From: an uncultured Gammaproteobacteria bacterium
GTDB taxonomy: Bacteria; Patescibacteriota; Patescibacteriia; UBA9934; GWF2-40-263
Direction: 5' to 3'
Assembly: GCA_964538435.1 (NCBI GenBank)
Contig: CAZIDX010000003.1
Coordinates: 110,039-174,038 of the forward strand
DNA length: 64,000 bases
In this document: positions 26,852 through 64,000 of the stretch, piece by piece
How positions within the stretch are numbered: the stretch's first letter is position 1
Layout of the letters: every line of letters begins with the position of its first letter
Made by a program: the position numbers and the translations under genes
Notes under the pieces: generated by a model
The model's input: the letters and a program-made list of their open reading frames with translations, nothing else
Told to the model about the DNA's origin: nothing
The model's database searches: none

Positions 26852-26940
26852 TTTCAGCAACATCCCCTATCCATCTTGGATGGGGGCTTGCCTTGCTCCC
26901 GAGAGTCTTCTCTAGAGAGCAAGGTTAGCTAGCAAACCCT

Positions 26941-27357: not shown

Positions 27358-27392
27358 TTTCAAATAAACCAATTAGCCGTTAACACACACCT

Positions 27393-27776: not shown

Positions 27777-27802
27777 CCGCAGATCAAATCCACAAACAAC
27801 AA

Positions 27803-27827
27803 GACCCGGAGCAATCCGGGTTTTTTG
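27803..27827 (+). terminator. rho-independent terminator acccggagcaatccgggtttttt ending the pilin-like array
   Basis: 7-bp GC stem plus T6. The sequence downstream switches abruptly to >60% GC. Confidence 0.75.
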
Positions 27828-27950
27828 TTAGCAAAATACAACCGCCCCCGAGAACCTGAATCTGTTTCCAGACCAGGCCCTGCGGGGGCGTCGTTGTTTG
27901 CCATGGCGTTCCCATGGCTAGGACCACTGCTTGAGCAGCCCTCGTGGATC

Positions 27951-28868
27951 TCAGTCCCACACGCGAGCACCTTCGGTGCCATCGTAGTCCCAGGACCCAC
28001 CTCGGTCGTTGCCGCCGTAGTGAGCGCGGCCCTTTCCGTTACGCGGGTGCTTGACCCACACCTGATGGTGCACGAGCAGGCCCGAGTAGGGATCCAGCAC
28101 CTCTTCGTACTCACCCTCCAGCGGCACCAGATACCAGACCGTGATGTCATCACTGGACTTCCAGTTCATCCAGAGGCTCTGGACAACCCGCGGGTTCACA
28201 CCCTTGTAGGCGATCGGGTCGGTGTGACCATCGCCATCCAGGTCCGCGTACACCGGAACGAAACCCGAGGGCTGACCTGGCTCGGCCGAAACCGGCATGG
28301 GGTTACCCTTGTTGATGACCACCACGCGAACCTCGGAGTAACCCTCAGCCCACGTCTTGGCACCAGAGCTCAGGCGCTGAAGATGCAACCGACCCGAGCC
28401 AGGAAGCTCGCTGACGCTCACCCGGCTGGGCGTGGACACCCGACGATGCGAGGTGCCACCGTACACGACCCGCCGTGGGCCCTGCGTGCCGCGCTGCTGC
28501 GCAACCGGCCCCGGCATCGGCTGTGCCGGCACAGGCACCTGCTCGGTGCTCGCCGTACTCTGCATGGCTGCCAGGTCGCCCTGGATCTCTCGGATCTGGG
28601 CGTTGAGCTCGTCCACCTGGGACGAAAGACTCTCTGCCAGCGACGAATCCTCTTCGGACCGCGCTTCCATGACCGAGATCTTCGCAACCAGGATGCACTG
28701 CTGCACGCGCAGCGTCTGCACCTCGAGCAGGTCACTGTAGTTGGTGCCGAGGCACTCGGCGCGCTTGTCAGCGTACCAGTCGTCGAGCTCGTCGGCGCTG
28801 GCGCTCAGGGGGACGATCAGAAGAAGGGTGACCAGGATGGCCAGAAGGATGGTTTCGATGGTCTTCAT
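27951..28868 (-). CDS. secreted hypothetical protein with a coiled-coil and a DxDGDG (FG-GAP/Ca-binding-like) motif; high-GC island
   Basis: GGAGGA RBS and signal peptide MKTIETILLAILVTLLLIVPLSASA. ...VYADLDGDGHTDPIAYKG... The opposite-strand ORF 27825..28949 is rejected as antisense. Confidence 0.5.
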   Translation of the reverse strand: MKTIETILLAILVTLLLIVPLSASADELDDWYADKRAECLGTNYSDLLEVQTLRVQQCILVAKISVMEARSEEDSSLAESLSSQVDELNAQIREIQGDLAAMQSTASTEQVPVPAQPMPGPVAQQRGTQGPRRVVYGGTSHRRVSTPSRVSVSELPGSGRLHLQRLSSGAKTWAEGYSEVRVVVINKGNPMPVSAEPGQPSGFVPVYADLDGDGHTDPIAYKGVNPRVVQSLWMNWKSSDDITVWYLVPLEGEYEEVLDPYSGLLVHHQVWVKHPRNGKGRAHYGGNDRGGSWDYDGTEGARVWD

Positions 28869-28949
28869 GGATTCCTCCGGGCCGCCTCAGGCGACCACGC
28901 AAGTAGATGTGTGCGTGGTCAACCCGAGACTATCCCAAGCCGACCGTGA

Positions 28950-29510
28950 TCAGGGGTTGGCGATCTTGCCGATCGCCTCGGTCTGCCAGTCGTTGCGCGC
29001 ACGCTCTTCCCGCACGCACGCAGCGATCTCGCTGAGTGTGACCGGATTCTCCGGGCACGTGGCGCTGGGGTCGATGGCCTCGCTTGCAGATGCCGGACTC
29101 ACGGTGTAGCCCTGCTGCCCCAGAACGGGCAGGTCTGGACCGGCTTGCACGGGGATCGCGCCACCAGGACCTGGGCCCACGGTGATCACGTCCGGAGCGA
29201 CCTGGCCGTAGCCGTAGTAGCCACCACCGTAACCGCCGTACATGCCGTAGCCGGTGTAGCCGGCCGACAGGCTGGTGCCATGCTCGCTGGTCTGCATGGA
29301 GATGGGCATGCCCTGCTCCACCGCGACGCGGGCCGTCTCGGCGTTGTAGCCGGTCGTGTCCGCGTTCATGACCGCGACAGCTCCACCTGCCGGTCCGTTG
29401 TAGTCCACCCGCATCACATCCCCATCCGGGGACTGACGCAGACTCGTCACATGCGCTGCACATCCCTGCATCAGCAGGGCCAGCACAATCAAGCTCAGGA
29501 TGCGATTCAT
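28950..29510 (-). CDS. probable lipoprotein with a Gly/Tyr-rich low-complexity segment; high-GC island
   Basis: AAGGAGG RBS before MNRILSLIVLALLMQGCAAH. ...GYTGYGMYGGYGGGYYGYG... Confidence 0.45.
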   Translation of the reverse strand: MNRILSLIVLALLMQGCAAHVTSLRQSPDGDVMRVDYNGPAGGAVAVMNADTTGYNAETARVAVEQGMPISMQTSEHGTSLSAGYTGYGMYGGYGGGYYGYGQVAPDVITVGPGPGGAIPVQAGPDLPVLGQQGYTVSPASASEAIDPSATCPENPVTLSEIAACVREERARNDWQTEAIGKIANP

Positions 29511-30093
29511 CGCTTCCTCCTTCATACCAACTCACCCTGCTGGGCTGTCGGCTCTGTGTGATTGTGATTCTCTGAGTAGCAGTTAGCGAAACTCAAGTGA
29601 TCTACTCGCTCTTCGCTAACCGCTACTCGCTTCTTAAAGGTACAAAAAAGGCAGCGATGTCGAGGGGGGTTCCGCCTATCAACAGATATGCGGTACATCG
29701 ATGCCTTATTTGACCCCTCAAATATCATATTTTCTAACGAACAACTATACCACAAAATGGCCATTTTGTCAATACATTTAAACACTCTCAAACACTCTCA
29801 AAGTCCAGCTTCCGAAGTCCAGCTTTGGAAGCTGGACTTCGAATTTGAGTTTATAAAATGAAAAACAATAAAATTTGAAAATGTGTTATCTGCAGACAAA
29901 ATATTTCAATCTGTTTCATTCTTTTGATAGTAATTCAAAACAATCGAAAGACCGGTGCCAGCCTCACACTTCCCGAAGGTTGTGAAGGCCGGACACCGGT
30001 CCGTTTCGTACTCAGGTCTTTCGCGCCTGAGCGTAGAGCTCTACGAACGTAACACGAGGGTCACTCAAGCTCGCGGAGGGGATCAAACCCTCA

Positions 30094-32280
30094 TCACTTG
30101 CACAAGATCGCGCGATCGCGCGCTGGCATGCTAGGGTCCGAGCACAGATCCCGACCCTTGGGCTTGGGTGCCGGGGCCGAAGCCTGCACCACCGTACCCT
30201 TGCGCTTCTCGAAGGTGTCCCCACTCGCGTAGGTGATCTCCTTCTCACGCATGCGGCTACCCGTAGTCGGGTCCACGGTCGTGATGTCCGTAACCGACAC
30301 CTTGGGATCCACGATGTCTGTGAGAACCAGCTTCTCGGCCGGATCTGCAAACCAGACGTAACCCATCATGGCCACGAGGATCAGGCCGATGCACGCACCA
30401 GCCCACCGCACCTTGCTGCGCACGTTGTAGAAGCGCGCACCGATCTTGACAGGCCGAACGCTCAGGCGGTGAACCAGAAGCGCGAACACTAGGCCCATGA
30501 CCGCAACTGCCACCGTGGACAACCACTTGGAAGCGACCACCATCTTGGCGATGAAGGCCCAGGCCATCCCCACGAGGGTCAGACCGGTCACGAACTCGCC
30601 CGTGTGAGCACTGAGCGTACCGCACAGGTACACCATAACGATCGGCACCACACCAATCGCGTACTCGATGTACACAATGCTATTGGCGTACTTCTGGCGC
30701 GCCCTGTGGTTGTAGCCGATATCCACCAGGCCCATGGCCGTGGCGATCGGGGTGAGCACACCCACCACCAGGAGCAGTCGCCAGATCACGTCGATACCCA
30801 GCAGAGCTGAGACAACGGACATACCACCGAAGACGATGGCAAAGGCGCTGATCTTGCGACCGAGCGACTTCATCCAGTCGACCTCGCCCTTGAGGCCCGG
30901 GATGGCATCCAGTAGCTTCTGCCAGATCGGCAGGACCCAGGTGAGGGCCCAGATCATGACATAGCCCTTGATCATCGTGTAGGCAGCGTACTTGACACCA
31001 GACACCGTCTCACCGCCGAGCTGAGCCACAGCATCAGGCTGAGTGCTGAACCCATCGATGAACATCAGGATGAACTGGAGGAACCCGAACAGGTACAGCG
31101 CCGCAGCAGCCACGAACGGCGAAGCCACCAGGATGGTGACCAGGAACATGGCAACCGGGTTGAACCCCCGATTTCGGGCAGCCTCGATGATGGACGAGGC
31201 CAGCAGAAGGATCTTGTTGCTAGCCTGCAGTTCAGCCTTGAGCCACTTGTCCAGCACGCTCTTGGCATCCAGGTAGTCCTCACGCTCGAAGGTCGGCCGG
31301 TTCTGATCCCGGTCGATCACGAGCGGCGCGAACGGCCCGCCGAACAGGCGGTTGATGTCGTCCGGGCTGACCTTGTCAGGCAGATCCTTGGACAGATCCT
31401 CGGCCACGATATCCTCGAGGCCACCGAACCGACGGCTAGCGCGCGAGTAGGCCTGAATGCACAGGACCGAATCGTCACTGAGCCGCTGGGCCCAGGAGCG
31501 CTTGGGGCCGAACAGGCGACGAACTTCTTCGATGTCGCCAGGAGTGGCACCACCGGCCTGCATGATCTCCACGACCCGCTCGGGCGGAACGTTTTCATAC
31601 GGGAACGGCTGACCAGGAACGATCACGGTCTGACGATTCCGGGCATTGCCACGCGTCTCACGACGGGCCGCATTGGCAGCGACCCACATGTCATGGGCAT
31701 TGGCCCACTCGTTGGTCGAGCCGCTGGCATCCCGACACATGGGGACGTTGTCGTCGTAGCGGCGGATCTCTCCGTTGTCGTCGAGCAGTGCGATGAACAC
31801 ACGCCCGGGAACGAGCCGCGTGCGAAACACGCGATCCATGACGCCAGTACGGTCTGCCTGCGCCACGGTGGGGCTGTTCTGGACATTATCCACCCAACCG
31901 CGGAGGATGTCGGAGAACGAGTCACCAACACCAACCGTTGCGGCCGGCAGCATCTGGAACATGGTGCGCGCGGTCTGCGCGAACACGCTGTTGTCGTCGG
32001 GGAGGATGTGCTGCGAGAGATTGCGCGAGGCAATCCAACGCCCAAGCCCAGCAGCCAGGATGTGCGGACCGTAGGTGGCACCTGGAATGGCGCCGACGAT
32101 TCGACGAGCGGCACGCTCGAAGTTCCGGTTGCCAGTCAGGTTCTCCAGAGCACTACGAACGGCCGCACGCGGATCTTCTCCACGCGACTGCGCGTTTGCC
32201 AGAGCTCGGTTGATGGTCTCACGGAACAACCGTTCCGTTACCTCATTTGCGAGGCCAGTTGCGATGGTTCCTGCACTCAT
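30094..32280 (-). CDS. large hypothetical membrane protein (cytoplasmic N-domain ~400 aa plus ~10 TM helices); high-GC island
   Basis: Start chosen at MSAGTIATGL, 7 nt after an AGGAGA RBS; the ORF track extends it to 32418. No recognisable catalytic motif. Confidence 0.45.
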   Translation of the reverse strand: MSAGTIATGLANEVTERLFRETINRALANAQSRGEDPRAAVRSALENLTGNRNFERAARRIVGAIPGATYGPHILAAGLGRWIASRNLSQHILPDDNSVFAQTARTMFQMLPAATVGVGDSFSDILRGWVDNVQNSPTVAQADRTGVMDRVFRTRLVPGRVFIALLDDNGEIRRYDDNVPMCRDASGSTNEWANAHDMWVAANAARRETRGNARNRQTVIVPGQPFPYENVPPERVVEIMQAGGATPGDIEEVRRLFGPKRSWAQRLSDDSVLCIQAYSRASRRFGGLEDIVAEDLSKDLPDKVSPDDINRLFGGPFAPLVIDRDQNRPTFEREDYLDAKSVLDKWLKAELQASNKILLLASSIIEAARNRGFNPVAMFLVTILVASPFVAAAALYLFGFLQFILMFIDGFSTQPDAVAQLGGETVSGVKYAAYTMIKGYVMIWALTWVLPIWQKLLDAIPGLKGEVDWMKSLGRKISAFAIVFGGMSVVSALLGIDVIWRLLLVVGVLTPIATAMGLVDIGYNHRARQKYANSIVYIEYAIGVVPIVMVYLCGTLSAHTGEFVTGLTLVGMAWAFIAKMVVASKWLSTVAVAVMGLVFALLVHRLSVRPVKIGARFYNVRSKVRWAGACIGLILVAMMGYVWFADPAEKLVLTDIVDPKVSVTDITTVDPTTGSRMREKEITYASGDTFEKRKGTVVQASAPAPKPKGRDLCSDPSMPARDRAILCK

Positions 32281-32487
32281 GGCGATCTCCTGTGTGCGCG
32301 GGCAATGCCCTGCGTCTTGTAGGTTTTGATGAACTGAAAACGACATCCAAACAGCCTCGAGGTTGCCCCCAAAGCCGCTCAGAATCGGAAAACCTTCTCT
32401 TTGTGGACGCAAAGTCACACACAGAAGAAGGTAGGTTTATACCATATTTTGGGCTTTTTGTCAATCTGTCTTGACGTATCAAAATCA

Positions 32488-45879: not shown

Positions 45880-46015
45880 CACGCACCGAGTCCTTAAACT
45901 CGGCCTGCCCGCCGAAGCTTTAGCAAAGGCGGGTTTTCGTATTGATCTATTGACAAAACAAGGAAAATCCGTAAAGTCCAAACCACTGCATCAAACGCAG
46001 ATATGGGAGGAAACC

Positions 46016-46912
46016 ATGTTCGAAGCCTTGCTGCTCGTCATCCCCGCCTGGGGACTGCTACTCACAGGAATCATCTTCCTCGCACTCTTCTTCTTCATCG
46101 AGTTCGAGCGCCCTGGTTGGGCCACCATCTCGGTCATCCTCACGATCGCCGTGCTCCAGATCGGTAACATCTGGGACTCGGGTGTGAACGTCATCGGACT
46201 CCTGATCGAGCACCCCTTCTACGCACTCCTGGCCTTCTGCGCCTGGTTTGTGATCGGAGGGTTCTGGTCCGTGGGCAAGTGGTGGTTCTTTGTGCGTCGC
46301 CTGCGCGACAAGTACGAAGAGAAGAAGCGTCGGTTCCTACTCTCGCACGGAATCAAGGACACCCTCACCATCCCGGACGAGCTCAAGGAGCGCTTCCTCT
46401 ACGAGAACTACCTCCACGAGTACGACCGTGCCATCAACACGCTACTCAGAGCGTTCCCGGACTACAGCAACGCCGCCTCACGAGTCAACGACCGTGTCGG
46501 TGGCGGAACCGACCTGACAGCCACCGCAACGCATTTCGGAGTCAACGAAGAAGCTCTGCGCGACCTGGCCACGTTCACCAACGCTCGCCCAGACGATCGC
46601 AAGGACCTGCTGTCCCTGAACCTACCCGATGAAATGAAGGCTAAGTTCAGCGCTGAGCTGAGCGGCCCGGAGATGCGCGCAGCCATCGTCCCCTCTGCTC
46701 GGGACCACAAGTGGCGCATCATGACATGGATGGCCTGGTGGCCCTGGTCCATGCTCTGGACCCTGCTCAACGACCCCATCCGCCGCATCTGGCGCTGGGT
46801 CTGGAAGAACCTGCAAAAGACGTTTGCGAGCATCGCCACAAGCGCGTTCCGCAGCGTCGACGACGACCTGGTCAGCACCCACGAGACTCCTACCAAGGAC
46901 CTCGAGGCCTGA
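46016..46912 (+). CDS. hypothetical membrane protein (3-4 N-terminal TM helices plus a cytoplasmic domain); high-GC island
   Basis: GGGAGG RBS then MFEALLLVIPAWGLLLTGIIF...; the track start 45950 is rejected. Confidence 0.45.
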   Translation: MFEALLLVIPAWGLLLTGIIFLALFFFIEFERPGWATISVILTIAVLQIGNIWDSGVNVIGLLIEHPFYALLAFCAWFVIGGFWSVGKWWFFVRRLRDKYEEKKRRFLLSHGIKDTLTIPDELKERFLYENYLHEYDRAINTLLRAFPDYSNAASRVNDRVGGGTDLTATATHFGVNEEALRDLATFTNARPDDRKDLLSLNLPDEMKAKFSAELSGPEMRAAIVPSARDHKWRIMTWMAWWPWSMLWTLLNDPIRRIWRWVWKNLQKTFASIATSAFRSVDDDLVSTHETPTKDLEA

Positions 46913-47109
46913 CCCACGCACGATCCCACTCGCACACCCCGCGACCGAGGGCTCGCCCGCCACAGCTCACTAGAGCAAAGGCGGGTTTTCTAATTGACAC
47001 AAAAACCTAAAAATGATAGTTTTTTCAGTCCAGATTCGCCTGAACCCAGCTGGTTCTGTTAGTCGAAATAAGATGATATCTGTTTTCTTTTTCTGACCAG
47101 GAGGGTCAG

Positions 47110-47655
47110 ATGAAGTTCGAAGAACTACGTATCGGGAAGGGTCTGAGCATCCTCCTTGGAGACCGTGTCCTCGTGCCCGGCAATATCCTGTTCATCGAAT
47201 GGGAGAATGGCACACAGACCCTCGCCCAGATCCTCGAGAGCACGGACATCAGCCGGGACAGCTACGTGATCGATGCAGAGGCCATCTGGTTCGAGATCCA
47301 GAATCTCGTCAACAACCAGAACGCTGGCGTCCTCCGCAGCGGCAAGTGCCGCGCCGCGTTCGTGGCCGAAGGCGGAGAGATCCGCTTCGCCAGGCCCGTG
47401 GGCGCGGACAAGAACTTCACGCTCCGCGAGCGCCGTCTGGCCAACTTCCAGTGGGTTCTGGTGCGCTGGCCGAACAAGGCTGTGAGCGCGCACCGTGTCC
47501 GCCGCGAGCAGCGCACCGCGCGCCACTACGGTCAGGCCTTCGCTGAAACCACCTGGCACTACTGGCTCGAGATCTGGCACAACGGTCACCTGATCTGCGA
47601 GCCAATCACCAGCCAGACCAAGCTGCGGCTCTGCCACATCCCCAAGCCCGCGTAG
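47110..47655 (+). CDS. hypothetical protein (MKF... family paralog); high-GC island
   Basis: RBS ggaggg, then MKFEELRIGKGLSILLGDRVLVPGNILFIEWENGT... Confidence 0.45.
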   Translation: MKFEELRIGKGLSILLGDRVLVPGNILFIEWENGTQTLAQILESTDISRDSYVIDAEAIWFEIQNLVNNQNAGVLRSGKCRAAFVAEGGEIRFARPVGADKNFTLRERRLANFQWVLVRWPNKAVSAHRVRREQRTARHYGQAFAETTWHYWLEIWHNGHLICEPITSQTKLRLCHIPKPA

Positions 47656-47682
47656 CCCTCGAGCTCGCGAGCAACGCAACGA

Positions 47683-47751
47683 CACGCCCCCGGGCGTGTT
47701 TCAGTTTTCAAACCAAAAAACCCTGCCTTCCGGCAGGGAGGCAGGGTTTTT
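47683..47751. terminator. pair of convergent terminators (acacgcccccgggcgtgt+T; aaaaaccctgcc...ggcagggttttt)
   Basis: Two GC hairpins with flanking T/A runs, between the plus-strand gene ending at 47655 and the minus-strand gene ending at 47753. Confidence 0.6.
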
Positions 47752-54655: not shown

Positions 54656-55951
54656 CTACTTTTTCACAATTGTCTCCCTGAGGAAATCAATCACCTTTCG
54701 ATTGCGCATGATCTGCTCCATATAATCGCGGTACTCAGCTGAGAAAATCTGATCCTTTGCTTCCTTGTTCTCCTTGTACTGCTCAGCAAGACGATCAAGC
54801 TCCTCATCAAGCTCCTTTTCTTCAACCTGAATGTCTTCCTTTTTAGCAACAGCTCGCATAGCAAGCGCAACCTTGATCCTTGTCAGTGCCTGCGGGGTAA
54901 ATTCAAGCTTGAGATCTGCAAGAGTCTTCTTCATGGCTTCCAAGTACTTCTCAAATTCACCACCTTGAGCCTCAACAGCACGCTGAAGCTCCATAATCAT
55001 CTTATTAATCTCCTCGTTTACAAGTGCGTCAGGGACATCATCGAACTGACTCTTGGTAGCAATCAACTCCAGCATCTCACGCTCCTGTCGAGCAAGTTCT
55101 TCCTGGTCCTTTTCATTAAGAAGATTCTCTTTGATCCGCTCTTTCAGCTCTGCCAAGTCCTTCATGCCAAGCGTCTTTGAAAAAGCATCGTCAAGTTCTG
55201 GTGATTCCAAGTGGAAAAGCTCCTTAAGCTCCACTTCGAATTCAACATCATTTCCTGCAAGCATTTTCTGAGCATGGTCTTCAGGGAACGGAAGAGTAAA
55301 TGTCTTCTTCTCTCCCTCCTTCATGCCACGAACCTCATCCTTAAACCCAGGGATATAGTAATCTTCATTCATGAACACAACATGATTCGGAGACTGACCA
55401 CCCTCAACAGGCACACCTTCTTTTTTCATGTCCATAGCAACAACCAGCTTATCGCTATCAGTTGCGCCTTCCTCTGCTGTGGCGCGCACCTCCTTTGTTT
55501 GCATGCGTTGCAAATCACGAAGAGCAAGGTCGATGTCCTTATCTGCAATCTCAACTTTCTTTACCTTCACCTCAAGCTTTGTGTAGTCCGCAAGTTCTTT
55601 TACAGCCGGCATAAGAGTTACCTCAGCAGTAAACTCAATGTCATTTTCTGGAGCAAGCTTTGAAACATCTACCTTTGGCGAACCAACAGTGTCGATGTCA
55701 TTAGCCAAAATAGCTTCAATGTAAGACTTGCGAATAATAGTCTCAAGCGCTTCTTCAAGAAGTGCCATCTCACCGACCTGTTGCTTTACAACATCATAGC
55801 CAGCTTTTCCAGGACGGAATCCTGGGATTTCTTTTTGTTTTGAAATTCGCTCTGCCGCTTCCTCCAAGTAGGGCTTTGCCTCTTCTTGGGTCACAACAAA
55901 CGTGATTTTTTTCTTGTTTGAATCAAGGTCCTCGATCTTAATGTTTGGCAT
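54656..55951 (-). CDS. tig: trigger factor
   Basis: Start at MPNIKIEDLDSNKKKITFVV...; ...GFRPGKAGYDVVKQQVG... (ribosome-binding signature) and a PPIase middle domain. Confidence 0.85.
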   Translation of the reverse strand: MPNIKIEDLDSNKKKITFVVTQEEAKPYLEEAAERISKQKEIPGFRPGKAGYDVVKQQVGEMALLEEALETIIRKSYIEAILANDIDTVGSPKVDVSKLAPENDIEFTAEVTLMPAVKELADYTKLEVKVKKVEIADKDIDLALRDLQRMQTKEVRATAEEGATDSDKLVVAMDMKKEGVPVEGGQSPNHVVFMNEDYYIPGFKDEVRGMKEGEKKTFTLPFPEDHAQKMLAGNDVEFEVELKELFHLESPELDDAFSKTLGMKDLAELKERIKENLLNEKDQEELARQEREMLELIATKSQFDDVPDALVNEEINKMIMELQRAVEAQGGEFEKYLEAMKKTLADLKLEFTPQALTRIKVALAMRAVAKKEDIQVEEKELDEELDRLAEQYKENKEAKDQIFSAEYRDYMEQIMRNRKVIDFLRETIVKK

Positions 55952-56023
55952 AATTTTTCGAAAAACAGATTTGTATAACGCCCGGAGAGTAACGAATCTT
56001 AGGCAAAAAGTCAAGGGTTAAGG

Positions 56024-56071
56024 ATAAGAAAACCCCACAGGCATCCGTGGCTTCACGGTTGCTTGTGGGGT
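56024..56071 (-). terminator. rho-independent terminator (minus strand) at the left boundary of the 56-64 kb high-GC island
   Basis: The reverse complement is ccccacaagcaaccgtgaagccacggatgcctgtgggg followed by ttttcttatcc. Confidence 0.6.
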
Positions 56072-56080
56072 GGTGTGTTG

Positions 56081-57778
56081 CTACTGACCGAGCGTGCCTC
56101 GGTCCGAGCAATGGTTGGTCCAGAGTTGTTCGATGCCCGCGCAGACGTCGGGTGGGGTGACTTGCGGCACGATGGCCAGGTCTGTCACGTTGATCTGCAC
56201 CTGCCCATCAGGCTCGACCTCTTCGCTGCGCAACCACGCGAACGTGGCCTCGCGCGTCTCGAACGGACCGTGCACCTCGTTGGTCTTGGAGTCCACGAAC
56301 ACCGTAGCGACCACGCGAGCGTAGTCCTCCGGGGTGATCGAGAGCATCCAGAACAGGCGATCCTGCCCCTTGGGTGTGACCGGCCTCGGTTCCACGATGC
56401 GGTAGGTGCCGCTAGCGTTCTTACCACTTCCCTCGTACCAGACGTAGTTGGGGAGGGACTTGGCGTACGAGATCACCTTGCGTGGACCTTGCAGGTTCGC
56501 AGGGCGACCTTCGATATCGTAGCGGTAGACCTGCCGCTCGCCAGTCTTGGCGTTGATCGTGTAGATCCGCATGAGCGAGAAGGCATCACCATCAGGCTCG
56601 ACCGTGGCCAGGTACTGGTAGGTGCTGTCCTGCATAGGCAGGAAGAACGGCATCTGCTCCTTCCCTGGGAGAGGAGGGATCTCGATCTTGCCAGGGCGGC
56701 GCACGACACCGAACCACATCTGCGCGAGCATGAAGCTGCCAGCATCGTAGCGCTGCGAGTAGATGTAGTTCTTAGCCATCTTCTCCGGGAACAGACGGCT
56801 GGTGACCTGGAGTCGCTCATCGACAGCTGCCTGCTCCGGGCTCAGATCTTCGACGGTTCCATCGGGATGGAAGATCGCGACACCTCCCCATCTGGGAACC
56901 AGGATACCCCACCAGAAGCGATAGCCGATGTAGGGAACCACACCCACGATCTCAGTGACTTCACCTTGCTCGTCGTAGAGTGGGGCGTAGTAGATCTCGG
57001 GATAGGTCTTGAAGAAGCCCACCTCCCAGATCAACTTGCGGTGGATGTCGTCGAAGATCTCCATGTCCTCACCCCACTTGAAGGGGGTGGTGGTCATGGT
57101 CTCGACGCGCTGTCCGTTCTCGCTGGTTCCGCCATCATCGAAGTACATGAAGCCTTCGTTCTTCTCCAGCAGTGCATTCCACATCCCCTGAGGGACAAGT
57201 GGCGCGATGTAGTCGACGCCGTTCTCACTGCCGATCGGTCGCGTCTCACCTGGGGTGAACTGCGAGGTCTGCGTGCGGCGCACGATCTCTTCAGCAGCCA
57301 CCTGGGCCGGGGTGTAGCGCACCAGCTCGTTGGAGACAAGAGGCATCTGGTCGGTTTCCACGAACTGGGAGTCGCGGTAGACCTGGACCCAGACAGCACC
57401 TTTCATGAACCCGACCACGAACAAGGAAACGAACACAGCGAATCCCATCGCAGTGATCACGATTGGGTTGATCCAACCACGAATCCCTTCTCCCCTGACC
57501 ACGTAGCGCTTGACGAAGCGGAAGGCCAGGTACATGCAGGCAAGACCAGCCAGAATAGCAGGTGCCTGGAGGATGATGACCTCGAAGGTCCAGTGGTGGA
57601 TCCACACCGGTGCCAGCTTGTAGCAGACGTAGAAGATCACAGCGCCCGGGAAGAGCATTCCGAAGTAGTTGGCGAAGAAGAAGCGCATCAGACGATGGTA
57701 CACGGAGGTTCCTGTGTACTTCTTCTCAGCACCCTTCTTGACCTTCCTGATGATGTTCCAGAGATCGAGCGGATTCAT
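56081..57778 (-). CDS. hypothetical polytopic membrane protein with a large extracytoplasmic domain; high-GC island
   Basis: 565 aa, several N-terminal TM helices, 4-nt overlap with the upstream M48 peptidase gene. The opposite-strand ORF 56063..57874 is rejected. Confidence 0.5.
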   Translation of the reverse strand: MNPLDLWNIIRKVKKGAEKKYTGTSVYHRLMRFFFANYFGMLFPGAVIFYVCYKLAPVWIHHWTFEVIILQAPAILAGLACMYLAFRFVKRYVVRGEGIRGWINPIVITAMGFAVFVSLFVVGFMKGAVWVQVYRDSQFVETDQMPLVSNELVRYTPAQVAAEEIVRRTQTSQFTPGETRPIGSENGVDYIAPLVPQGMWNALLEKNEGFMYFDDGGTSENGQRVETMTTTPFKWGEDMEIFDDIHRKLIWEVGFFKTYPEIYYAPLYDEQGEVTEIVGVVPYIGYRFWWGILVPRWGGVAIFHPDGTVEDLSPEQAAVDERLQVTSRLFPEKMAKNYIYSQRYDAGSFMLAQMWFGVVRRPGKIEIPPLPGKEQMPFFLPMQDSTYQYLATVEPDGDAFSLMRIYTINAKTGERQVYRYDIEGRPANLQGPRKVISYAKSLPNYVWYEGSGKNASGTYRIVEPRPVTPKGQDRLFWMLSITPEDYARVVATVFVDSKTNEVHGPFETREATFAWLRSEEVEPDGQVQINVTDLAIVPQVTPPDVCAGIEQLWTNHCSDRGTLGQ

Positions 57779-58677
57779 GCGTGGCTTTCCTCCAGCTGCT
57801 TGAGCATGGTGATTCTGTTGGACATGTTTGGGTGGCTGAGCAGGAGCTCGTCCATCTGCGGTCGTCGCAGTTGACCTAGCGGGCTCTTCTTGCCTTGGTT
57901 GCTCTCATCCTTGTACCAGGCCTCCATCTTCTTGAAAGCGCTGATCAAAGGTTGGACCTCACCAGTCAAGTGTGCGCTGTAGGCATCGGCTGCGTATTCG
58001 CGCAGTTGTGTGATACCTGCTGCGACCACACGGGGGAAGTAGTTGGCGAGCTCGATGGCGATCGCGATCAGTAGCGCAAGGCGACCGACCTTCATCATCT
58101 GGTTGGTGAAGTTGTTGAGAACCGTCATGGTGATACCGATGATGGTCATCAAGGCCGTGTCTCGTGAGCGGATGTGTCCGATCTCATGAGCGAGCACAGC
58201 CTCAACTTCGTCATCATCGAGGATCTCCAGAAGCGGCTGTGTGACTGCCACCCCAGAGCCCCCCATGATTCCACTCCCAAACGCGAACGCGTTGGGCATC
58301 TCCATCTTGGAGACAAACAAGGTGGGGGTGTACTTCAGGCCAGAGCGCTCCACCAGTCGCTTGAGCATGGGGAGGAGGCGCTTTGACTGCTCCTCGCTCG
58401 GGGTCTCGCAGTCCATCAGAGCGATCACGATACGACCGCTGTTGAGGAAGATCAGCGTCTGCACAACCGTGATGGTTACGAGCAGACTGATCACAGCGGG
58501 CGGCTTGAGGAATCGCATCCCCACAGCCGAGACAATCAACACGACCACGAACAGGAAGATGAAGAACAACCACGAGTTGTGTTTGTGCTCCTTCCATTCC
58601 TGGAGTGCTCGCGCTTTATCGATGCCAGTTTTGGGCATGTTCTGCTCCTTTTCGTTGTGAAGAACGACGCGAAACAT
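57775..58677 (-). CDS. M48-family zinc metallopeptidase (HtpX-like)
   Basis: N-terminal TM helices, and ...VEAVLAHEIGHIRSRD... (HExxH) with the downstream E. Confidence 0.7.
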   Translation of the reverse strand: MFRVVLHNEKEQNMPKTGIDKARALQEWKEHKHNSWLFFIFLFVVVLIVSAVGMRFLKPPAVISLLVTITVVQTLIFLNSGRIVIALMDCETPSEEQSKRLLPMLKRLVERSGLKYTPTLFVSKMEMPNAFAFGSGIMGGSGVAVTQPLLEILDDDEVEAVLAHEIGHIRSRDTALMTIIGITMTVLNNFTNQMMKVGRLALLIAIAIELANYFPRVVAAGITQLREYAADAYSAHLTGEVQPLISAFKKMEAWYKDESNQGKKSPLGQLRRPQMDELLLSHPNMSNRITMLKQLEESHA

Positions 58678-58767
58678 TAGCTTTTTTCAAAGGTTTTGTC
58701 AAGGAAACAACGCAATAAGAAAACCCCACAGAGCGCGACTACTCGCTGTCTCTATGGGGTCGTTGCT

Positions 58768-60834
58768 CTAAGCCGCAGCCTCGAGCAGGCGGACGTGGAT
58801 CTGTCCGGCGCGATGGCGAAGCCAGGCGCTCTCAGACTGTCCTTGTCCGGTCGTGGGGTCTCGTTGCAGCAGCGACGGGTTGCGTCGCAGCTGGTCCTGA
58901 GCGATGCACAGCGCGATCTGGGTGATCGCCTGCGTGCGCCGCACGTCGTCCGAGCCCTTGTAGATCGGGTGGGCGAAGTTCAGGCCGATGCGCGTGGGGC
59001 GCTCACCAAGACCTTCCCAGAGCCAGCCAACCTCCCACCCCTCGTCTTCGTACTTGGGTCGATGGTTGCGAATGCTCAGCTCGTAGCGCACACCATCCCA
59101 CACGAACTCCGTACGAGACGTGCGTCGGGTGCGCTGCGGACGTTCGCCCTTGTGGGCCACGAAGATCGTGCAGGTGCTGCTCAGGCGCGTCCCCTTGCGG
59201 GTCTGCCCCTTGACCGTCACCTCGAACGTCCCCTCTTCGTCACCGATCATGTGCGTGGCTGAGAGGCAGTCACGCGCCACCTTGACCACACCACCAGCCT
59301 TCCGGTGTTCCCAGACAGGCTTGCCTTGTAGTGTGCTGGGCACCTGCAAGGTGTGGGTGATCATCTGCCCAGGCTCGATGTTGTGCCGCGAGCCCACCAG
59401 GAAGCAGAACGGCAGCTCGCGCACGACCTTGACCGTGATCTCGGCCCTCTTGCCATTGCCACGAACCAGGATCTTGCCACGCGCGGGCCTGCGACCAGCC
59501 GTGAACGTGACCTGCGGGCCATGGAGCGAGCTCAGACGACCCGGTGCCCCACTAGCATCCCAGGTGTAGTCCTTCCCGCTCTCAGGTTGCTCGATCGCGA
59601 TGTCGATGCTCTGACCAGGCTCCAGAATGATCCGCGAACGGCTCAGTCCGAGCTTGGTCTTGAGTGTCACATCAGCGACCTGACGATCCGTCTCCGGAGC
59701 GCCACCCACCTGCTGGAACTCCTGAACCAGAGCATCGCGGATCGTCTCGTTGTCCGAGACGGCCCTGTTGCGATCCTGGCCAGTCTTGGCTTCCACCAGG
59801 GGCACGATCTCGTTGTAGAGCCACTTGAGGAAGTTGAAGATGACGTCGTCGTTGTCGAAGAACGCCGGCTTCCACCCCTTGCGATCCGAGGTCACGAACT
59901 GATTCCACGAGGGAATCACGATCGAACCGATCACATGCGGATGGTCCAGGCTCACCGAGATGGCATCGAGGAGCGGCGATACAGCCGGAGTCGGATGCAC
60001 CTGGTTGAGGAAGTCGCGGATCGAGCTGACCTTGTCGTACGCCCACAGCATGAGCTCGTCGCGGTCAGCCTGACGCTGGGTCACAGCGATGGTGTAGGCC
60101 ACCTGGCCCACATCCTCGACCTGCGCCACACCTTCGAGCTTGTCTCCGCGGATCTTGCGGGGCGCCAGCTTGAGCTTGCGACCACGCGCGTCGATCACGG
60201 TGATGGCTTGAGCCAGGTCCGGCGGCAGCTCCTGCGCAAGCTCGTTGATCACACGCTTGAGCGAGCGGTTGTGCCTGGGATCCACGTTCGTGCCCTTGCC
60301 AATGTTCTCCCAGGTAAAGCACGTGCCGTGCCCCTGGATGATGCAGTCGGCCGGGACCTCGAAGATCCCCCAGCGCACGTCTTCACCGCGGTCCCACATC
60401 TCGATCAGCTCTTCAGCTGTGTACGAGATCCGGTACAGGGCGTTCTCAGCGCGCCTGATCGTCTCCACGGTCAAGCGAGCGGCATGGTAGCAGAAGGCCT
60501 TGGAGCCCTGGCCAGCCTTGCCGTGCTTGTTGGGATCGTCTGCGCTCGAGGACTGGTTCAGGCTCACGATATCCGAGAGGCCCGAGTTCGAGACGCCTTC
60601 ACCATTGCCGTAGATCCGCAGGTCAGTGCGGTTCTTGCTGCGCTTGACGAACTGGATCACGATGTTGAGATCACCGCAGGTCTTCTGCGTCCAAGCATCG
60701 TGTTCGTTCCTGACCGCCTGAAGCAGTGCGATGATGAAGTCCTGGAAACTCTCCGTGTTCTTCCAGAGCGTGGTGTTATGCACACCAGAGCTCACCGCGA
60801 TTTCACCGCGGCGCGTCAGATGGTTGTCAGCCAT
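58768..60834 (-). CDS. large cytoplasmic hypothetical protein; the N-terminus has Bergerat-fold (GHKL-ATPase)-like motif spacing but non-canonical key residues
   Basis: GAGGAGG RBS before MADNHLTRRG. Motifs LLQAVRNEHDA (N-box-like, ~aa 43), RIYGNGEGV (G1-like, ~aa 76) and HGKAGQGSKA (G2-like, ~aa 104) are in canonical order and spacing, but the catalytic Glu and G1 Asp are not conserved. Confidence 0.35.
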   Translation of the reverse strand: MADNHLTRRGEIAVSSGVHNTTLWKNTESFQDFIIALLQAVRNEHDAWTQKTCGDLNIVIQFVKRSKNRTDLRIYGNGEGVSNSGLSDIVSLNQSSSADDPNKHGKAGQGSKAFCYHAARLTVETIRRAENALYRISYTAEELIEMWDRGEDVRWGIFEVPADCIIQGHGTCFTWENIGKGTNVDPRHNRSLKRVINELAQELPPDLAQAITVIDARGRKLKLAPRKIRGDKLEGVAQVEDVGQVAYTIAVTQRQADRDELMLWAYDKVSSIRDFLNQVHPTPAVSPLLDAISVSLDHPHVIGSIVIPSWNQFVTSDRKGWKPAFFDNDDVIFNFLKWLYNEIVPLVEAKTGQDRNRAVSDNETIRDALVQEFQQVGGAPETDRQVADVTLKTKLGLSRSRIILEPGQSIDIAIEQPESGKDYTWDASGAPGRLSSLHGPQVTFTAGRRPARGKILVRGNGKRAEITVKVVRELPFCFLVGSRHNIEPGQMITHTLQVPSTLQGKPVWEHRKAGGVVKVARDCLSATHMIGDEEGTFEVTVKGQTRKGTRLSSTCTIFVAHKGERPQRTRRTSRTEFVWDGVRYELSIRNHRPKYEDEGWEVGWLWEGLGERPTRIGLNFAHPIYKGSDDVRRTQAITQIALCIAQDQLRRNPSLLQRDPTTGQGQSESAWLRHRAGQIHVRLLEAAA

Positions 60835-60927
60835 TCCACTCTCCTCCTCAGCTTCTGACAAGGACTGGAAACACAATGTTTCCAGCTCTTGTTGAAAGCG
60901 GGGACAAGAGTGTTGTCCCCACACGCA

Positions 60928-62475
60928 CTACGGCTTGCGCTGTTCGCGCACAAGTCCGATCGCGTGCTGTTGAAGCCCCTGCTGTTCCAGGAACTTCTCT
61001 GGTTCCTCGAGTTCGAGGGCAAAGAACAGATCTGAGAGCGTTGTCAGCGGGTTATCCATCTCGCGAAGGATGCGGTCACGGATATCGTCTGACCAGGTGC
61101 AGATGGTGCGCACGATCACCTCGAGCTCACGCACACGCCTGATCGACGCCTGCTCGAGCTCTGGTGTGTGTTGCACATCTCCCTGCATCAGCACAGCCTC
61201 CAGTGGGCAGGCCTGACACAAGGATGGCTTCTGCCCTGCTCCGAGTCCGTCAGGAAGACGCTCTGAGAGCTCTGGGTGCAGTCTGAGAATCTCCTGTACC
61301 GCAGCCGCTGATTTGGCCAGTTCGATCAGGGTGCTCTCCGGCACCTGCACCGAAGGTTCGCTCACAGGAGCGGGCTCAGCCGGAGGCTCCGCGCGTTCGA
61401 GCGAACTGATTCTCTGTCCTGGTGCCACAGCGCGATCACTCTGCTGCTCAGGCTTGCTCACAGGAGCAAGATCCAGTGCAGGAGCAGGGGCTGCCTGCTC
61501 AGCATCATCTACCACATGCCAGTACACCGGCATGGTCACGCGCCGCTTTCGACCCGTCTTCTTCAGGCTCGCAACCGCACGCTTGTAGCGACCCAGGATC
61601 TCCGGGCGCTTGCGCTCGATCACGATTTCCATCAAGCGAATGATGGTGTCAGAAGCAGTTCTCCCATCGCTCGGGTAGCTCCAGTTCTTGAGACGATCGA
61701 TCACTGACTCAGAAAGTCCGGTCTTGTTCTTGATGACAGATGTGGTGCGACCCTCGAGATCTCGGAAGACCTCACTGTGAAGCTCTTCGAACGTTTCGAT
61801 CCCCAGAACATCCTTGGTAGGAGCGCCCAGAAGACGTTCTCCGAGCACGCGGAAGCGAACCGTATCTCGACACGGCCGCTCCGGATCCAGGGCACGAGTG
61901 AATCCGATGGTGAGCATGATCACGCAGCGCTTGAGCGCTTCGCCTGCAGGCATGCGAACCGTGGCTTCCTGGCGGGTTGAGCTCTGAGCCTTTCCCCAGC
62001 TGTTGATGCCGCTCGGACTCTCGCCAAGCTGCAAGCCAACGAGTCCACCCTGGATCTCGTCGATGACCTCCTGGATCTGACTCAGGATCTCCCCTCGTGT
62101 GGGGGCGATGCCAAGGTCGAGCTTGTCGCGAAGGTTGGGGTCCCGTGTGAGCATCCAAGCCAGAGATGGGTTCTCACCGCGAATCTGATCGATCCGATCC
62201 AGATCAGCAAGGATCTCCCGCTTGGTCTCCAGGACCATCAGGCGATCGATCTCGATGCCGGTCACGGAGATGAATTGCTTGATGCGGCTGGTGGTCAGAG
62301 CCGTGGTCCACTCATTGGCAAGCCACTTGCGCAGCGTGCCAGGTTTGACCTCCATGGCGCGAGCAACAGCCTCTACGCGGGGGGTTCCGTTGGCTTTCAT
62401 GAAGACCGACAGAAGCGATTTCAGGGTAGCATTGCTGTTGTAGTGGTACCCAGGGTTGATCCATTCGCGGGGCAT
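60928..62475 (-). CDS. hypothetical protein with an N-terminal helix-turn-helix
   Basis: ...TPRVEAVARAMEVKPGTLRKWLANE... is HTH-like. It sits 3 nt upstream of the 688-aa gene, suggesting an operon. Confidence 0.45.
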   Translation of the reverse strand: MPREWINPGYHYNSNATLKSLLSVFMKANGTPRVEAVARAMEVKPGTLRKWLANEWTTALTTSRIKQFISVTGIEIDRLMVLETKREILADLDRIDQIRGENPSLAWMLTRDPNLRDKLDLGIAPTRGEILSQIQEVIDEIQGGLVGLQLGESPSGINSWGKAQSSTRQEATVRMPAGEALKRCVIMLTIGFTRALDPERPCRDTVRFRVLGERLLGAPTKDVLGIETFEELHSEVFRDLEGRTTSVIKNKTGLSESVIDRLKNWSYPSDGRTASDTIIRLMEIVIERKRPEILGRYKRAVASLKKTGRKRRVTMPVYWHVVDDAEQAAPAPALDLAPVSKPEQQSDRAVAPGQRISSLERAEPPAEPAPVSEPSVQVPESTLIELAKSAAAVQEILRLHPELSERLPDGLGAGQKPSLCQACPLEAVLMQGDVQHTPELEQASIRRVRELEVIVRTICTWSDDIRDRILREMDNPLTTLSDLFFALELEEPEKFLEQQGLQQHAIGLVREQRKP

Positions 62476-62602
62476 GGGCAGCCTCCTCGCTTGCGAAAAA
62501 GGGCTAATTTCTCAGTAAACTAAGGAGAACTTGACGCACTCCTTAGAAGATAACGAGATTATCAGTGAAAAACACTTCTGTCAAGCATAAAACCTCGCTC
62601 TA

Positions 62603-62652
62603 TTGACATATGTTTCTTTGCTCGCTAGGGTACTTTCTCGACATGTTGTCGA
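62603..62652 (+). promoter_or_regulatory. sigma70-like promoter (TTGACA, 17-nt spacer, TAGGGT) with the perfect palindrome tcgacatgttgtcga at the predicted start site
   Basis: ttgacatatgtttctttgctcgctagggtactttctcgacatgttgtcgaac, in the divergent intergenic region between the HTH gene and the repeat-protein gene. Confidence 0.4.
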
Positions 62653-62788
62653 ACCCTGGAGGAATTCCCAATGCCCGATGAGTCCAACACGCAGGGACGA
62701 AATGCACTTCGACGCGACACAGAGGTTGTGGTCGAGGCATTCGACCGCCCTGGAGCAACGGAACATCGATCAGTGCAGGAGAGTCGAA

Positions 62789-64000
62789 TGACCCGCAAGC
62801 CCAAGATCGTCAAGCTCGGTGAGGTGTACCTTCGCTGCACCATCGACCTGATCGATTTCTTCATCCAGCACGGTCGTCGCCCCATCCTCAAGGAGGATCG
62901 CGACGAGATTATTGCCAGGCACTCTTCAAGTCCTGGTGCAACGATCATGAACCAGCTGGAGAACAAGTACGGCGTGCTCTACACCGAGGACGAAGGCTCC
63001 GAGATCGACAAGACCTGCCGCATGATCATCGAGATCATTCTGGTCAAGTTCCAGCGAGGAGCCGCCGATGAAGATCTGATCGTGCACTACCCCCACGAGC
63101 ACAAAGGCAAGCGCTTGGGTGATCTCAAGCAGGAGCTCGGGCTCAACGGTGACATGCCGATCGAAGGTGATGAGGGTGAGAGTCAGGGTGAGCCTGAAAC
63201 GGTTCACAGCGGCATTCCCACCTACGCGGCTAACGCCCAGCCCATCGCCCTGCGCGGTCAGAGGCACCATGGCTACACCTTGATCAAAAACGAGGCGAGA
63301 GAGAGGAGTGGACGCCCCTTCTCACCCAGTGAGCTCGAGCAGGTGCTCGAGGCAACAGGATCCAAGTCAGTCCGTAGCCTGATCAGCTGGCTCGAAAAGA
63401 CCGGCTTCCTCCATGTGGTCTCAGGGGAGAAAAGGAGCCGCACCAACCCTTCCATGCGCGTAGTCGTCTTCCGTCCCACCATGAATGAGAACGAGACGCT
63501 CATTGTCCCGCCCGAGTGTCTTCCCTCAGAAGGAGATGCTCAGCAGGAGGAAGAGGTCGAGGGGCCCAAGGTCCTGACCTTGCCTGCCGATACCGAGCCG
63601 CTCGTTCTGCGCGGACTCAAGATCCCCGGCTACAAGGTTCTGCTCGAACTGCTTCGAGGTGTTGACTACGAGCCGGTCAGCTCCCAGCAGATCAAGAACG
63701 CACTCTCCCCCACAGGGGTGAGCAATCCGTTCAGCCTGCTCAATTCACTCGCTGCAGATGATCTCTGCGAAGTGGTCTCCGGCGAGGTAGGAAGCAAGCA
63801 CAACCCACCCATGCGCCTCTTCCGCTTCCGTCCCTTCCAAGAAGGAGACGACGGCAAGGTGGTGGTCCCACCCGAGTGCCAGGAACCCGAGCCGGTCATC
63901 AGCGAACCCATCGACGCTGAAGAGAGTCTTCCTGTCGAGCCCGAAGAGGTGCTCGAGCAGGAGGAGGTTGAAGTTCCGGTGGTTGTCCCCGGTGTCTCCC
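62789..64000 (+). CDS. hypothetical protein with two tandem ~110-aa winged-helix-like repeat modules (3' end beyond the window)
   Basis: AGGAGA RBS then MTRKPKIVKLGEVYLRCT.... The repeats are ...ISWLEKTGFLHVVSGEKRSRTNPSMRVVVFRPTMNENETLIVPPECLP and ...LNSLAADDLCEVVSGEVGSKHNPPMRLFRFRPFQEGDDGKVVVPPECQEP. No stop in the window, so it is absent from the ORF track. Confidence 0.5.

Follow-up and report, generated by a model that had tools for sequence, protein, structure and literature searches.

A MORC-like GHKL gene cluster and, probably, a separate inserted M48 protease cassette beside tig in a patescibacterial genome

When four genes lie close together on one strand and share a base composition distinct from that of their neighbors, do they form a single system? 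The question is raised by a block of genes in a 64,000-nucleotide stretch of DNA, here called the window (contig CAZIDX010000003.1 of assembly GCA_964538435.1, positions 110,039 to 174,038), from an uncultured bacterium that GTDB places in the Patescibacteriota. The block occupies window positions 56024-62475, all on the minus strand, and encodes, in order of transcription, a 515-aa protein, a 688-aa protein with a GHKL-type (Bergerat) ATPase-like domain, an M48 peptidase and a 565-aa membrane protein. A preliminary description had taken the block for a single four-gene operon on a horizontally acquired island, and a candidate conflict or stress system. We argue here that the region probably consists of two independent modules that adjoin only in this genome: the end of a gene cluster that includes a MORC-like GHKL protein (module 1), and an inserted M48 protease cassette (module 2).

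The four long minus-strand open reading frames (ORFs) are confirmed by the ORF list. The 515-aa protein, which we call the partner, is encoded at 60928-62475, and the GHKL protein at 58768-60834, counted from its ATG (a GTG-extended form has 718 aa). The M48 gene occupies 57775-58638 (287 aa from the ATG at 58638, within a 300-aa ORF that extends to 58677), and the gene for the 565-aa protein occupies 56081-57778. All four ORFs have homologues elsewhere and are therefore real genes; the long antisense ORFs in the block are a by-product of high GC. That high GC, reported from the outset, is borne out, with values of 0.56-0.62 in the four genes versus 0.44 in the adjacent dnaN-dnaA-rnpA-yidD-tig block. 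The excess is located at synonymous sites, since the GC content of third codon positions (GC3) is 0.68-0.81 in the four genes and 0.35-0.48 in the adjacent host block. An exact-match look-up of the GHKL and 565-aa proteins in public assemblies found neither on record.

Other details of the layout had been given correctly, namely the 90 nt that separate the M48 ORF from the GHKL gene and the 4-nt overlap between the M48 stop and the start of the 565-aa gene. Two details need correction. First, a length of 688 aa for the GHKL protein and a start 3 nt downstream of the partner gene are mutually exclusive, because the 3-nt gap belongs with the GTG-extended 718-aa ORF. The ATG at 60834 is backed by homologues that begin there and by a Shine-Dalgarno sequence, and it leaves a 93-nt spacer (86-123 nt in homologues). 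Second, the block does not begin right after the tig terminator. It is transcribed towards tig, the trigger factor gene, whose start at 55951 lies 129 nt beyond the end of the block. The tig gene itself (54656-55951, minus strand) is a host gene that bounds the cluster and matters here as context; its product is 61-69% identical to that of the tig gene found directly after the GHKL gene in four other loci, L001, L012, L015 and L017.

What divides the four genes into two pairs? Between the GHKL and M48 genes lies a predicted intrinsic terminator (58714-58759, minus strand), consisting of a hairpin, CCCCAUAGAG...CUCUGUGGGG, and then UUUUCUUAUU, with a fold energy of -31.9 kcal/mol (z = -5.8). 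It is followed by a promoter-like site for the M48 gene (58674-58702, minus strand), with TTGACA at 58697-58702, a 17-nt spacer and TAATGT at 58674-58679. Another predicted intrinsic terminator follows the 565-aa gene (56024-56071, minus strand; -27.6 kcal/mol, z = -5.2), and between this and the tig ATG is a promoter-like site for tig (55986-56014, minus strand), composed of TTGACT (56009-56014), a 17-nt spacer and TACTCT (55986-55991). Two strong terminators and an M48 promoter-like site would imply two or more transcription units rather than one operon.

The alignment of these spacers with those of L001, L012, L015 and L017 suggests how the arrangement arose. The tig promoter-like site aligns with a conserved TTGACA-17-TA(T/C)(T/A/C)CT pattern upstream of tig in the four loci, the GHKL terminator aligns with the terminator that precedes the tig promoter there, and the M48 promoter-like site copies the -35 part of the ancestral tig promoter region. 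Thus, both spacer copies in the window align with what is a single GHKL-tig terminator/promoter spacer in the other four loci. In addition, the 17-mer CTGTGGGGTTTTCTTAT at 56024-56040, which forms the 3' half and U-tract of the terminator after the 565-aa gene, is repeated exactly at 58715-58731. This 17-mer with CCTTGAC a few bases on occurs in exactly two copies in the window, one on each side of the cassette, where 0.14 would be expected by chance. Because a duplicated piece of the ancestral GHKL-tig spacer stands on either side of the M48 cassette, the cassette can be regarded as an insertion, and the simplest reading of the sequences is that the cassette was inserted into the GHKL-tig spacer and that part of the spacer was duplicated. 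The other loci contain a second case of lineage-specific insertion in this otherwise syntenic origin-proximal block: in L012, a 675-aa gene (L012:5569-7596, minus strand) with a faint alpha/beta-hydrolase match is inserted between tig and an inositol-phosphatase gene.

Do the two pairs ever travel together? Contigs carrying GHKL relatives were recovered for six further distinct loci. The order of a ~500-aa partner gene, a ~670-aa GHKL gene and then directly tig, with rnpA, dnaA and dnaN further on, is found in L001/L009/L014, L012/L013, L015/L016 and L017-L019, and none of these tig-adjacent loci, which represent at least four other distinct genomes, has an M48 gene. Conversely, the M48 gene and its 565-aa partner recur in three unrelated housekeeping contexts (L003/L004, L006 and L007/L008), with the overlapping M48 gene immediately upstream and no GHKL gene nearby. 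The preliminary description had staked its reading on the four genes recurring together and on an ATPase fold in the second. Nowhere else inspected do the four genes co-occur, whether in the at least four other genomes with the pair next to tig, the three further GHKL-family loci or the three contexts of the M48 pair; the ATPase fold, however, was found (see below). With predicted terminators and a promoter-like site dividing the pairs as well, the claim of a single four-gene operon is largely refuted.

The identification of the third gene as that of an HtpX-like M48 zinc metalloprotease stands: the Pfam model Peptidase_M48 matches with E = 2.7e-27 and 96.2 bits (cut-off 20.3), and the HEIGH motif is present at residues 151-155, with a downstream E-x-x-A-D (REYAAD). 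Two membrane helices are predicted N-terminal of HEIGH and one or two after it. Translation most likely starts at M14 (ATG 58638, with AAGGAG upstream), giving 287 aa; the downstream start is favored because the ATG of the 300-aa ORF falls inside the -10 box, and the homologues, with 282-289 aa, are in line with the shorter form. Eight NCBIfam HtpX models score the protein at ~100 bits (the best at 107, its cut-off being 355). As these scores are far below the equivalog cut-offs of 245-422 bits, the protein is not an HtpX orthologue. It shares with HtpX (M48B) and with BlaR1/MecR1 (M56) an HEXXH motif plus downstream Glu, embedding in the membrane and helices on both sides of the motif. In short, the gene encodes an ordinary member of the M48 family, and its partner is uncharacterised.

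The preliminary description had called this 565-aa partner a polytopic membrane protein. It is a membrane protein, but with about three N-terminal helices followed by a soluble domain of ~430 aa, which the AlphaFold model (pLDDT 70.8) represents as an alpha/beta domain. Neither Foldseek nor a family sequence profile found a significant PDB match, and no Pfam, NCBIfam, PHROG or PADLOC family was recognized. The protein has 23 homologues. Three of them (P0011 from Candidatus Uhrbacteria, P0012 and P0016) are fusions in which M48 forms the N-terminal part of a single polypeptide; P0011 shares 45% identity with the window M48 protein and 52% with the 565-aa protein. The recurrent overlapping adjacency and the three fusions uphold the earlier suggestion of a functional pairing between M48 protease and membrane protein. 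As in the sensor-coupled BlaR1/MecR1 proteins, a protease is tied, by operon or fusion, to a large non-cytoplasmic domain, although here that domain is not a penicillin-binding sensor. Module 2 most likely acts in membrane or envelope proteolysis, and since fusion to M48 recurs, the partner may be its substrate-recognition or sensor subunit, with a domain that is probably extracytoplasmic.

The first two genes belong to a different setting. In Uhrbacteria-type genomes (L001/L009/L014 is Candidatus Uhrbacteria CG_4_9_14_3_um_filter_50_9, and L017-L019 are also Candidatus Uhrbacteria), the cluster occupies the interval from H+-PPase/khpA to tig, within a few kb of dnaA. Upstream of the partner-GHKL pair in L001, L015 and L017 are a divergent gene, here named gene X, and as many as four orphan families (C, B, A and D) reaching to H+-PPase/khpA; L012/L013 end just upstream of the partner gene. 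With neighbor families that are shared between loci defined by all-against-all BLAST, the cluster comprises up to seven unannotated families: D, A, B, C, X, the ~500-aa HTH-like partner and the ~670-aa GHKL protein. The short contigs L002 and L010 carry gene X, partner and GHKL genes together, and gene X is divergent from the pair in L001, L002, L010, L015, L017 and the window. Locus L020 is the most distant one examined (22% identity); its GHKL gene is away from tig and is still linked to a family A gene. A 397-aa protein encoded upstream in L020 was considered as a member of the HTH-partner family, but was set aside at E = 0.04. Apart from the GHKL gene, no cluster gene reached a Pfam, NCBIfam, PHROG or PADLOC threshold. 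All GHKL family members with a named source come from Uhrbacteria, Parcubacteria or Patescibacteria, and genome and metagenome scans with a three-sequence alignment each returned the L001 organism only. The GHKL-partner pair is the tig-proximal end of a Patescibacteria-specific cluster of orphan genes.

Family A deserves a comment of its own. It is the best-conserved accessory gene (L001:3900-4928, L015:3010-4029, L020:7217-8374; 52% identity between L001 and L015) and the only accessory family still linked to the GHKL gene in L020. Its N-terminal half, with an NLDLDGS-type stretch, loosely resembles a Rossmann-fold methyltransferase, a likeness that no Pfam or PDB profile match supports.

How secure is the assignment of the second gene to the GHKL superfamily? 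The preliminary description proposed a divergent GHKL/MORC-like module with substituted catalytic residues, and Pfam, the family profile and Foldseek now agree on it. The Pfam model HATPase_c_3 matches residues 35-140 of the window protein with 31.1 bits (cut-off 25), and it matches 33 of 37 family members. The profile of these 37 sequences, searched against the PDB, finds the ATPase modules of MORC2, MORC3 and MORC4 as its best matches (E = 2e-10 to 2e-9; MORC2 2.4e-10), followed by MutL, TopoVI-B, PMS2 and Hsp90. A word-indexed homology search with this profile gave just four proteins; an exhaustive profile search over 1.84 billion cluster representatives (50% identity) yielded 255 relatives at E <= 0.001. 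From the family, 92 full-length sequences (600-730 aa, with the window protein included) were used for motif statistics.

An AlphaFold model built on the family alignment (mean pLDDT 85.7) recovers the Bergerat fold, and Foldseek aligns it over ~400 columns with GRP94, MORC2/3/4, GyrB, SMCHD1 and TopoVI-B (E = 1e-11 to 1e-9, probability 1.00). A match of that length takes in the Bergerat domain as well as a second, transducer-like one. The fold check that had been suggested for this protein thus came out in favor of a GHKL-plus-transducer structure. In the window protein, the Bergerat ATPase-like domain corresponds to residues ~20-180 (60295-60777, minus strand) and the transducer-like alpha/beta domain to residues ~190-380 (59695-60267, minus strand), in which R226 is near-invariant (69 of 86 members). 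The model then predicts Ig-like beta-sandwiches at residues ~400-620 (58975-59637, minus strand) and a C-terminal helical hairpin at residues 629-687 (58774-58950, minus strand). Beyond residue 400, the family profile also matches repeats of giant proteins, PKD or Ig models of Pfam match a few family members, and viral BIG2 and Ig-like proteins in the BFVD database match the Ig-like region of the model by Foldseek.

The Bergerat motifs that had been picked out from the sequence are real, in the correct order, and substituted at two key residues as claimed. The N-box reads Q39-x3-N43-x2-D46-A47, the G1 box G76-N-G78-E-G80, in which the glycines are kept and the Asp of D-x-G-x-G has become Gly, and the G2 box, conserved in the family alignment, G105-x2-G108-x-G110. 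Across the family, the Mg-binding Asn is present in all 87 aligned members, and the glycines of G1 and G2 are conserved. The catalytic-base position, four residues before this Asn, is nearly evenly divided in the 92-member set (Glu in 46, Gln in 40) and is Gln (Q39) in the window. On a neighbor-joining tree of the family, the Glu/Gln state has switched at least 11 times; the Glu and Gln codons are one G/C change at the first position apart. The adenine-binding position is Asp in 77 members and Gly in 8, the window protein (G76) among the latter, and the change from Asp to Gly falls mostly within one clade, which includes the window protein. Thus, the family as a whole has the adenine-binding Asp and the window copy does not, as judged from the aligned residues. 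Both substitutions occur together in only 3 of the 92 members, the window protein being one. Engineered mutants of MutL, GyrB and Hsp90 provide a model for the effects of such changes, and by analogy Q39 and G76 predict a loss of hydrolysis and weakened adenine binding in the window protein.

Among described systems, the closest in kind is the prokaryotic MORC/paraMORC radiation, with its links to restriction-modification (PMC2292703). In that radiation, the catalytic motifs are described as intact and the S5 domain of MORC carries the motif GhXhhpXXRhl (Iyer, Abhiman and Aravind 2008, PMC2292703). The window family resembles these proteins in its N-terminal HATPase_c_3-type GHKL domain, transducer-like alpha/beta domain and family-specific C-terminal extension, in its fast evolution, and in the DNA-binding-type partner encoded alongside. 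The differences are equally plain. A regular-expression search found the S5 motif in none of the 92 members, the catalytic Glu is Gln in about 45% of the family, and the C-terminal extension consists of Ig-like domains rather than a nuclease or TIR domain. Furthermore, no SFII helicase, methylase or restriction-fold/HNH nuclease was recognised among the cluster neighbors, and the window family is confined to one lineage and a fixed locus, whereas prokaryotic MORC and paraMORC are sporadic. The GHKL family is therefore MORC-like by fold but not MORC in the strict sense.

Residues ~20-380 of the window protein find their best profile and fold matches in eukaryotic MORC2/3/4, SMCHD1, MutL, GyrB, TopoVI-B and Hsp90. 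Identity to these modules is just 10-15%, with low query-normalised TM-scores (0.23-0.28), and the window protein is without CW, coiled-coil insertion or hinge domains. In MORC, SMCHD1, MutL, GyrB, TopoVI-B and Hsp90, the N-terminal regions dimerise on ATP binding and so form a clamp. The partner and the GHKL protein also recall two described kinds of gene pair in which a GHKL-superfamily protein and a DNA-binding or regulatory partner lie beside conflict-type genes, namely CapK-CapS (PMC13373217) and the paraMORC-like HEF_HK/Response_reg_2 pairs (PMC8011034). Neither fits. CapK is described as a small kinase of the anti-sigma-factor type that has no transducer domain, and CapS as a protein with a STAS domain (PMC13373217); no window or cluster protein matches HEF_HK (PF19191) or Response_reg_2 (PF19192; PMC8011034) at E <= 1. 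The earlier statement that no known defense architecture fits the block agrees with the PADLOC-DB v2 search, in which the partner, GHKL and 565-aa proteins had no match and the M48 protein had one at chance level only (E = 0.41).

What does the partner contribute? In six other loci, the gene directly before the GHKL gene encodes a homologue of it, 485-513 aa long and 25-37% identical. The protein has one to three weak XRE/Cro-type HTH-like segments, followed by a Pro-rich linker and a conserved helical C-terminal region, and its internal repeats give a weak signal (P = 0.004-0.007). The N-terminal HTH in the preliminary description is plausible at most: matches to Pfam HTH_26, HTH_3 and HTH_Tnp_1 are present (E = 0.01-0.05), and all lie below the Pfam cut-offs (16.5 bits against 22 for HTH_26 and 14.2 against 23 for HTH_3). 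Across seven partner orthologues, any HTH_26 match at E <= 1 appears in just two. Gene X is partial, running off the end of the window (62671-64000, plus strand, divergent from the partner gene), and its translation contains repeats that, from their sequence pattern, appear winged-helix-like and that end in an RP..(5-10)..PPEC motif. Its homologues end in a coiled coil, and divergent counterparts are found in L002, L010, L015, L001 and L017. Nothing in gene X exceeds a Pfam cut-off, and there is a weak excisionase-type match in PHROG (E = 0.0018). Profile searches of the PDB with the partner, gene X and family A found either no relative or coiled-coil noise only.

Two non-coding elements of the cluster may bear on its regulation. 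The divergent control region between gene X and the partner gene (62476-62670) contains back-to-back TTGACA -35 boxes at 62579-62584 (minus strand) and 62603-62608 (plus strand) within an imperfect inverted repeat. These putative promoters were assigned by eye against the conserved tig promoter pattern, and a consensus scan did not call them. The second element is the spacer between the partner and GHKL genes (60835-60927, minus strand), which is predicted to be strongly structured (-45.4 kcal/mol, z = -5.2). A GC hairpin and GCUUUC come right after the stop codon and are followed by a second hairpin, and in the predicted fold the outer stem pairs with the GHKL Shine-Dalgarno sequence. The same layout of GC hairpin, CUUUUC-type U-rich tail, second hairpin and ribosome-binding site is found in L001:9890-10003, L002:3453-3544, L010:3083-3177, L012:1908-2031 and L015:9875-10003, despite differing sequences, and across those loci the folds beat their shuffles everywhere (z = -3.4 to -6.0). 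The shared two-hairpin layout and the pairing with the ribosome-binding site suggest attenuation or translational control, so that the spacer may be an attenuator or a translational switch for the GHKL gene.

Is module 1 a resident of the chromosome or a newcomer? Here the preliminary description's horizontally acquired island becomes doubtful, as several divergent genomes have the GHKL pair at the same position on the chromosome and the GC of the pair follows that of the host. The absolute GC3 of the cluster goes from 0.22-0.29 in L017, a low-GC genome, to 0.75-0.92 in L015, whose GC is higher. Relative to flanking host genes, however, cluster GC3 is 0.2-0.3 higher in the window, L001 and L015, and ~0.07 higher in L017. 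Neither recent transfer nor plain vertical descent accounts for this pattern; biased gene conversion at a recombination-prone locus is one idea, and a speculative one. The cluster proteins diverge quickly (27-36% identity, versus 61-69% for tig and 77-87% for DnaA), to a degree comparable to that of the periplasmic binding protein encoded next door (35-39%). The order of similarity also differs by marker, since L015 is closest to the window in tig (69%), yet has the most distant GHKL protein among the tig-linked loci (29%). We read module 1 as a fast-evolving resident locus, with the compositional offset left over.

On this basis, how might the system work? The GHKL protein could be a nucleotide-gated or, in this genome, possibly nucleotide-independent, dimerising clamp or scaffold on DNA, rather than a fast ATPase; in many lineages, ATP hydrolysis would be dispensable. 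The HTH-like partner, together with the winged-helix and coiled-coil proteins of the cluster, would bring the clamp to DNA or regulate it, and the structured spacer, by hiding the ribosome-binding site, may control GHKL expression. As to its purpose, we tentatively favor a role in genome conflict or silencing, at somewhat less than even confidence. A more specific proposal, which we regard as doubtful at present, is that the orphan genes between khpA and tig, five to seven in number and represented in the window by gene X, the partner and the GHKL protein, form an undescribed, Patescibacteria-specific DNA-targeting system, with a MORC-like clamp carrying Ig-like domains, in which the Glu and Gln variants are 'cycling' and 'locked' forms and which acts in defense or in the silencing of foreign DNA.

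Several points weigh against the interpretation developed here. The terminators and promoters are predictions, a simple consensus scan did not call the proposed promoter sites, and read-through joining the units is possible. With Q39 and G76, the window GHKL protein may be unable to bind ATP at all, and the HTH in the 515-aa partner, although plausible, lies below the Pfam cut-offs. Pfam, NCBIfam and PADLOC gave no match to a nuclease, helicase, methylase or integrase among the neighbors in the window, L001, L015, L017 and L020. The GC3 offset of the cluster is not explained by a purely native locus. Finally, the loci inspected come from genomes already known to carry the GHKL gene, which leaves the fixed position open to ascertainment bias, and the part of the cluster past window position 64000 is outside view.

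The alternative that survives best is that module 1 is a native complex near the origin that organizes the nucleoid or regulates transcription, without any conflict role, its MORC-like clamp being a pseudo-enzyme in some lineages. In favor of such a complex are the constant position within a few kb of dnaA in four or more other distinct genomes, the presence of several partners predicted to bind DNA or form coiled coils, and the lack of a typical defense effector domain. Moreover, the nearest structural relatives, eukaryotic MORC and SMCHD1, act on chromatin. It is difficult to reconcile with the fast evolution of the cluster next to a slowly changing DnaA, the aberrant composition at synonymous sites, the repeated loss of catalytic residues and the distant L020 member, which is away from tig and dnaA, and we consider it unlikely.

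A second alternative, to which we give less credence again, is that module 1 and the rest of the cluster represent a mobile element of Uhrbacteria, or the decayed remains of a virus or plasmid, integrated at a fixed site by tig, whose GHKL and HTH proteins serve maintenance, partition or exclusion. The raised GC3 in the window, L001 and L015, the orphan nature of all cluster genes, the weak excisionase-type match of gene X, the discordant tig and GHKL similarities of L015 and the presence of further high-GC orphan patches in the same window all point in this direction. However, no integrase, transposase or relaxase was found with Pfam, NCBIfam and PHROGs, no att-like direct repeats flank the cluster in L001, L015 or L017, and an IMG/VR scan found no viral relative. 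That cluster GC follows host GC, and that its divergence is matched by a neighboring periplasmic binding protein, also argue for residence. The remaining alternative, one horizontally acquired operon acting as a single anti-phage or stress system in which the HTH and GHKL proteins sense and the M48 protease and its partner are the effector, has the common strand, the close spacing, the shared high GC3 and the lack of an opposite-strand gene in between in its favor, and is nevertheless very improbable in view of the dividing terminators and promoter-like site, the separate occurrence of the two pairs in all other inspected loci, the duplicated spacer that marks the cassette as a secondary insertion, and the PADLOC result.

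Some other features of the window may be recorded briefly. In a genome of ~0.47 GC, there are two more patches with a GC of 0.56-0.62, at 27800-32450 and 45900-47700, so that high-GC orphan blocks recur in this genome. Their orphan ORFs encode, on the minus strand, proteins of 305 aa and 191 aa as well as a membrane protein of 774 aa, and, on the plus strand, a membrane protein of 320 aa and a further protein of 181 aa. As no copies of families A-D were found elsewhere in the window, these patches are unrelated to those families. Just before the first patch, at 26402-27776 (plus strand), are three tandem genes of 127-149 aa each, which encode a signal/membrane helix, a Gly/Ala-rich stretch and a second membrane helix, and which resemble TrbC/VirB2-type pilin genes. 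A 23S rRNA match at 1991-5105 (minus strand) measures 3115 nt against a 2925-nt model and therefore contains about 190 nt of inserted sequence; the 5S rRNA gene is adjacent (1678-1786, minus strand), and no 16S rRNA gene was found within the window.

What does the locus mean for these bacteria? A large fraction of bacterial diversity belongs to the Patescibacteria (the candidate phyla radiation, CPR), for most of whose lineage-specific genes no function has been assigned. The analysis adds a GHKL family with an undescribed order of domains (GHKL, transducer, Ig-like domains and helical tail), a constant partner, and conserved orphan neighbors at a fixed site near the replication origin. It also documents a real two-component module of an M48 protease and a three-helix partner, sometimes fused, together with an insertion that is accompanied by a duplicated terminator/promoter segment. 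A shared strand, shared GC and short gaps are not, in this case, proof of an operon. That Glu and Gln occupy the catalytic position almost equally often, with repeated switching, amounts to a natural experiment on the need for ATP hydrolysis in MORC-type clamps. To our knowledge, very few immune systems have been recognised in ultra-small symbiotic bacteria, the setting in which the proposed DNA-targeting system would act.

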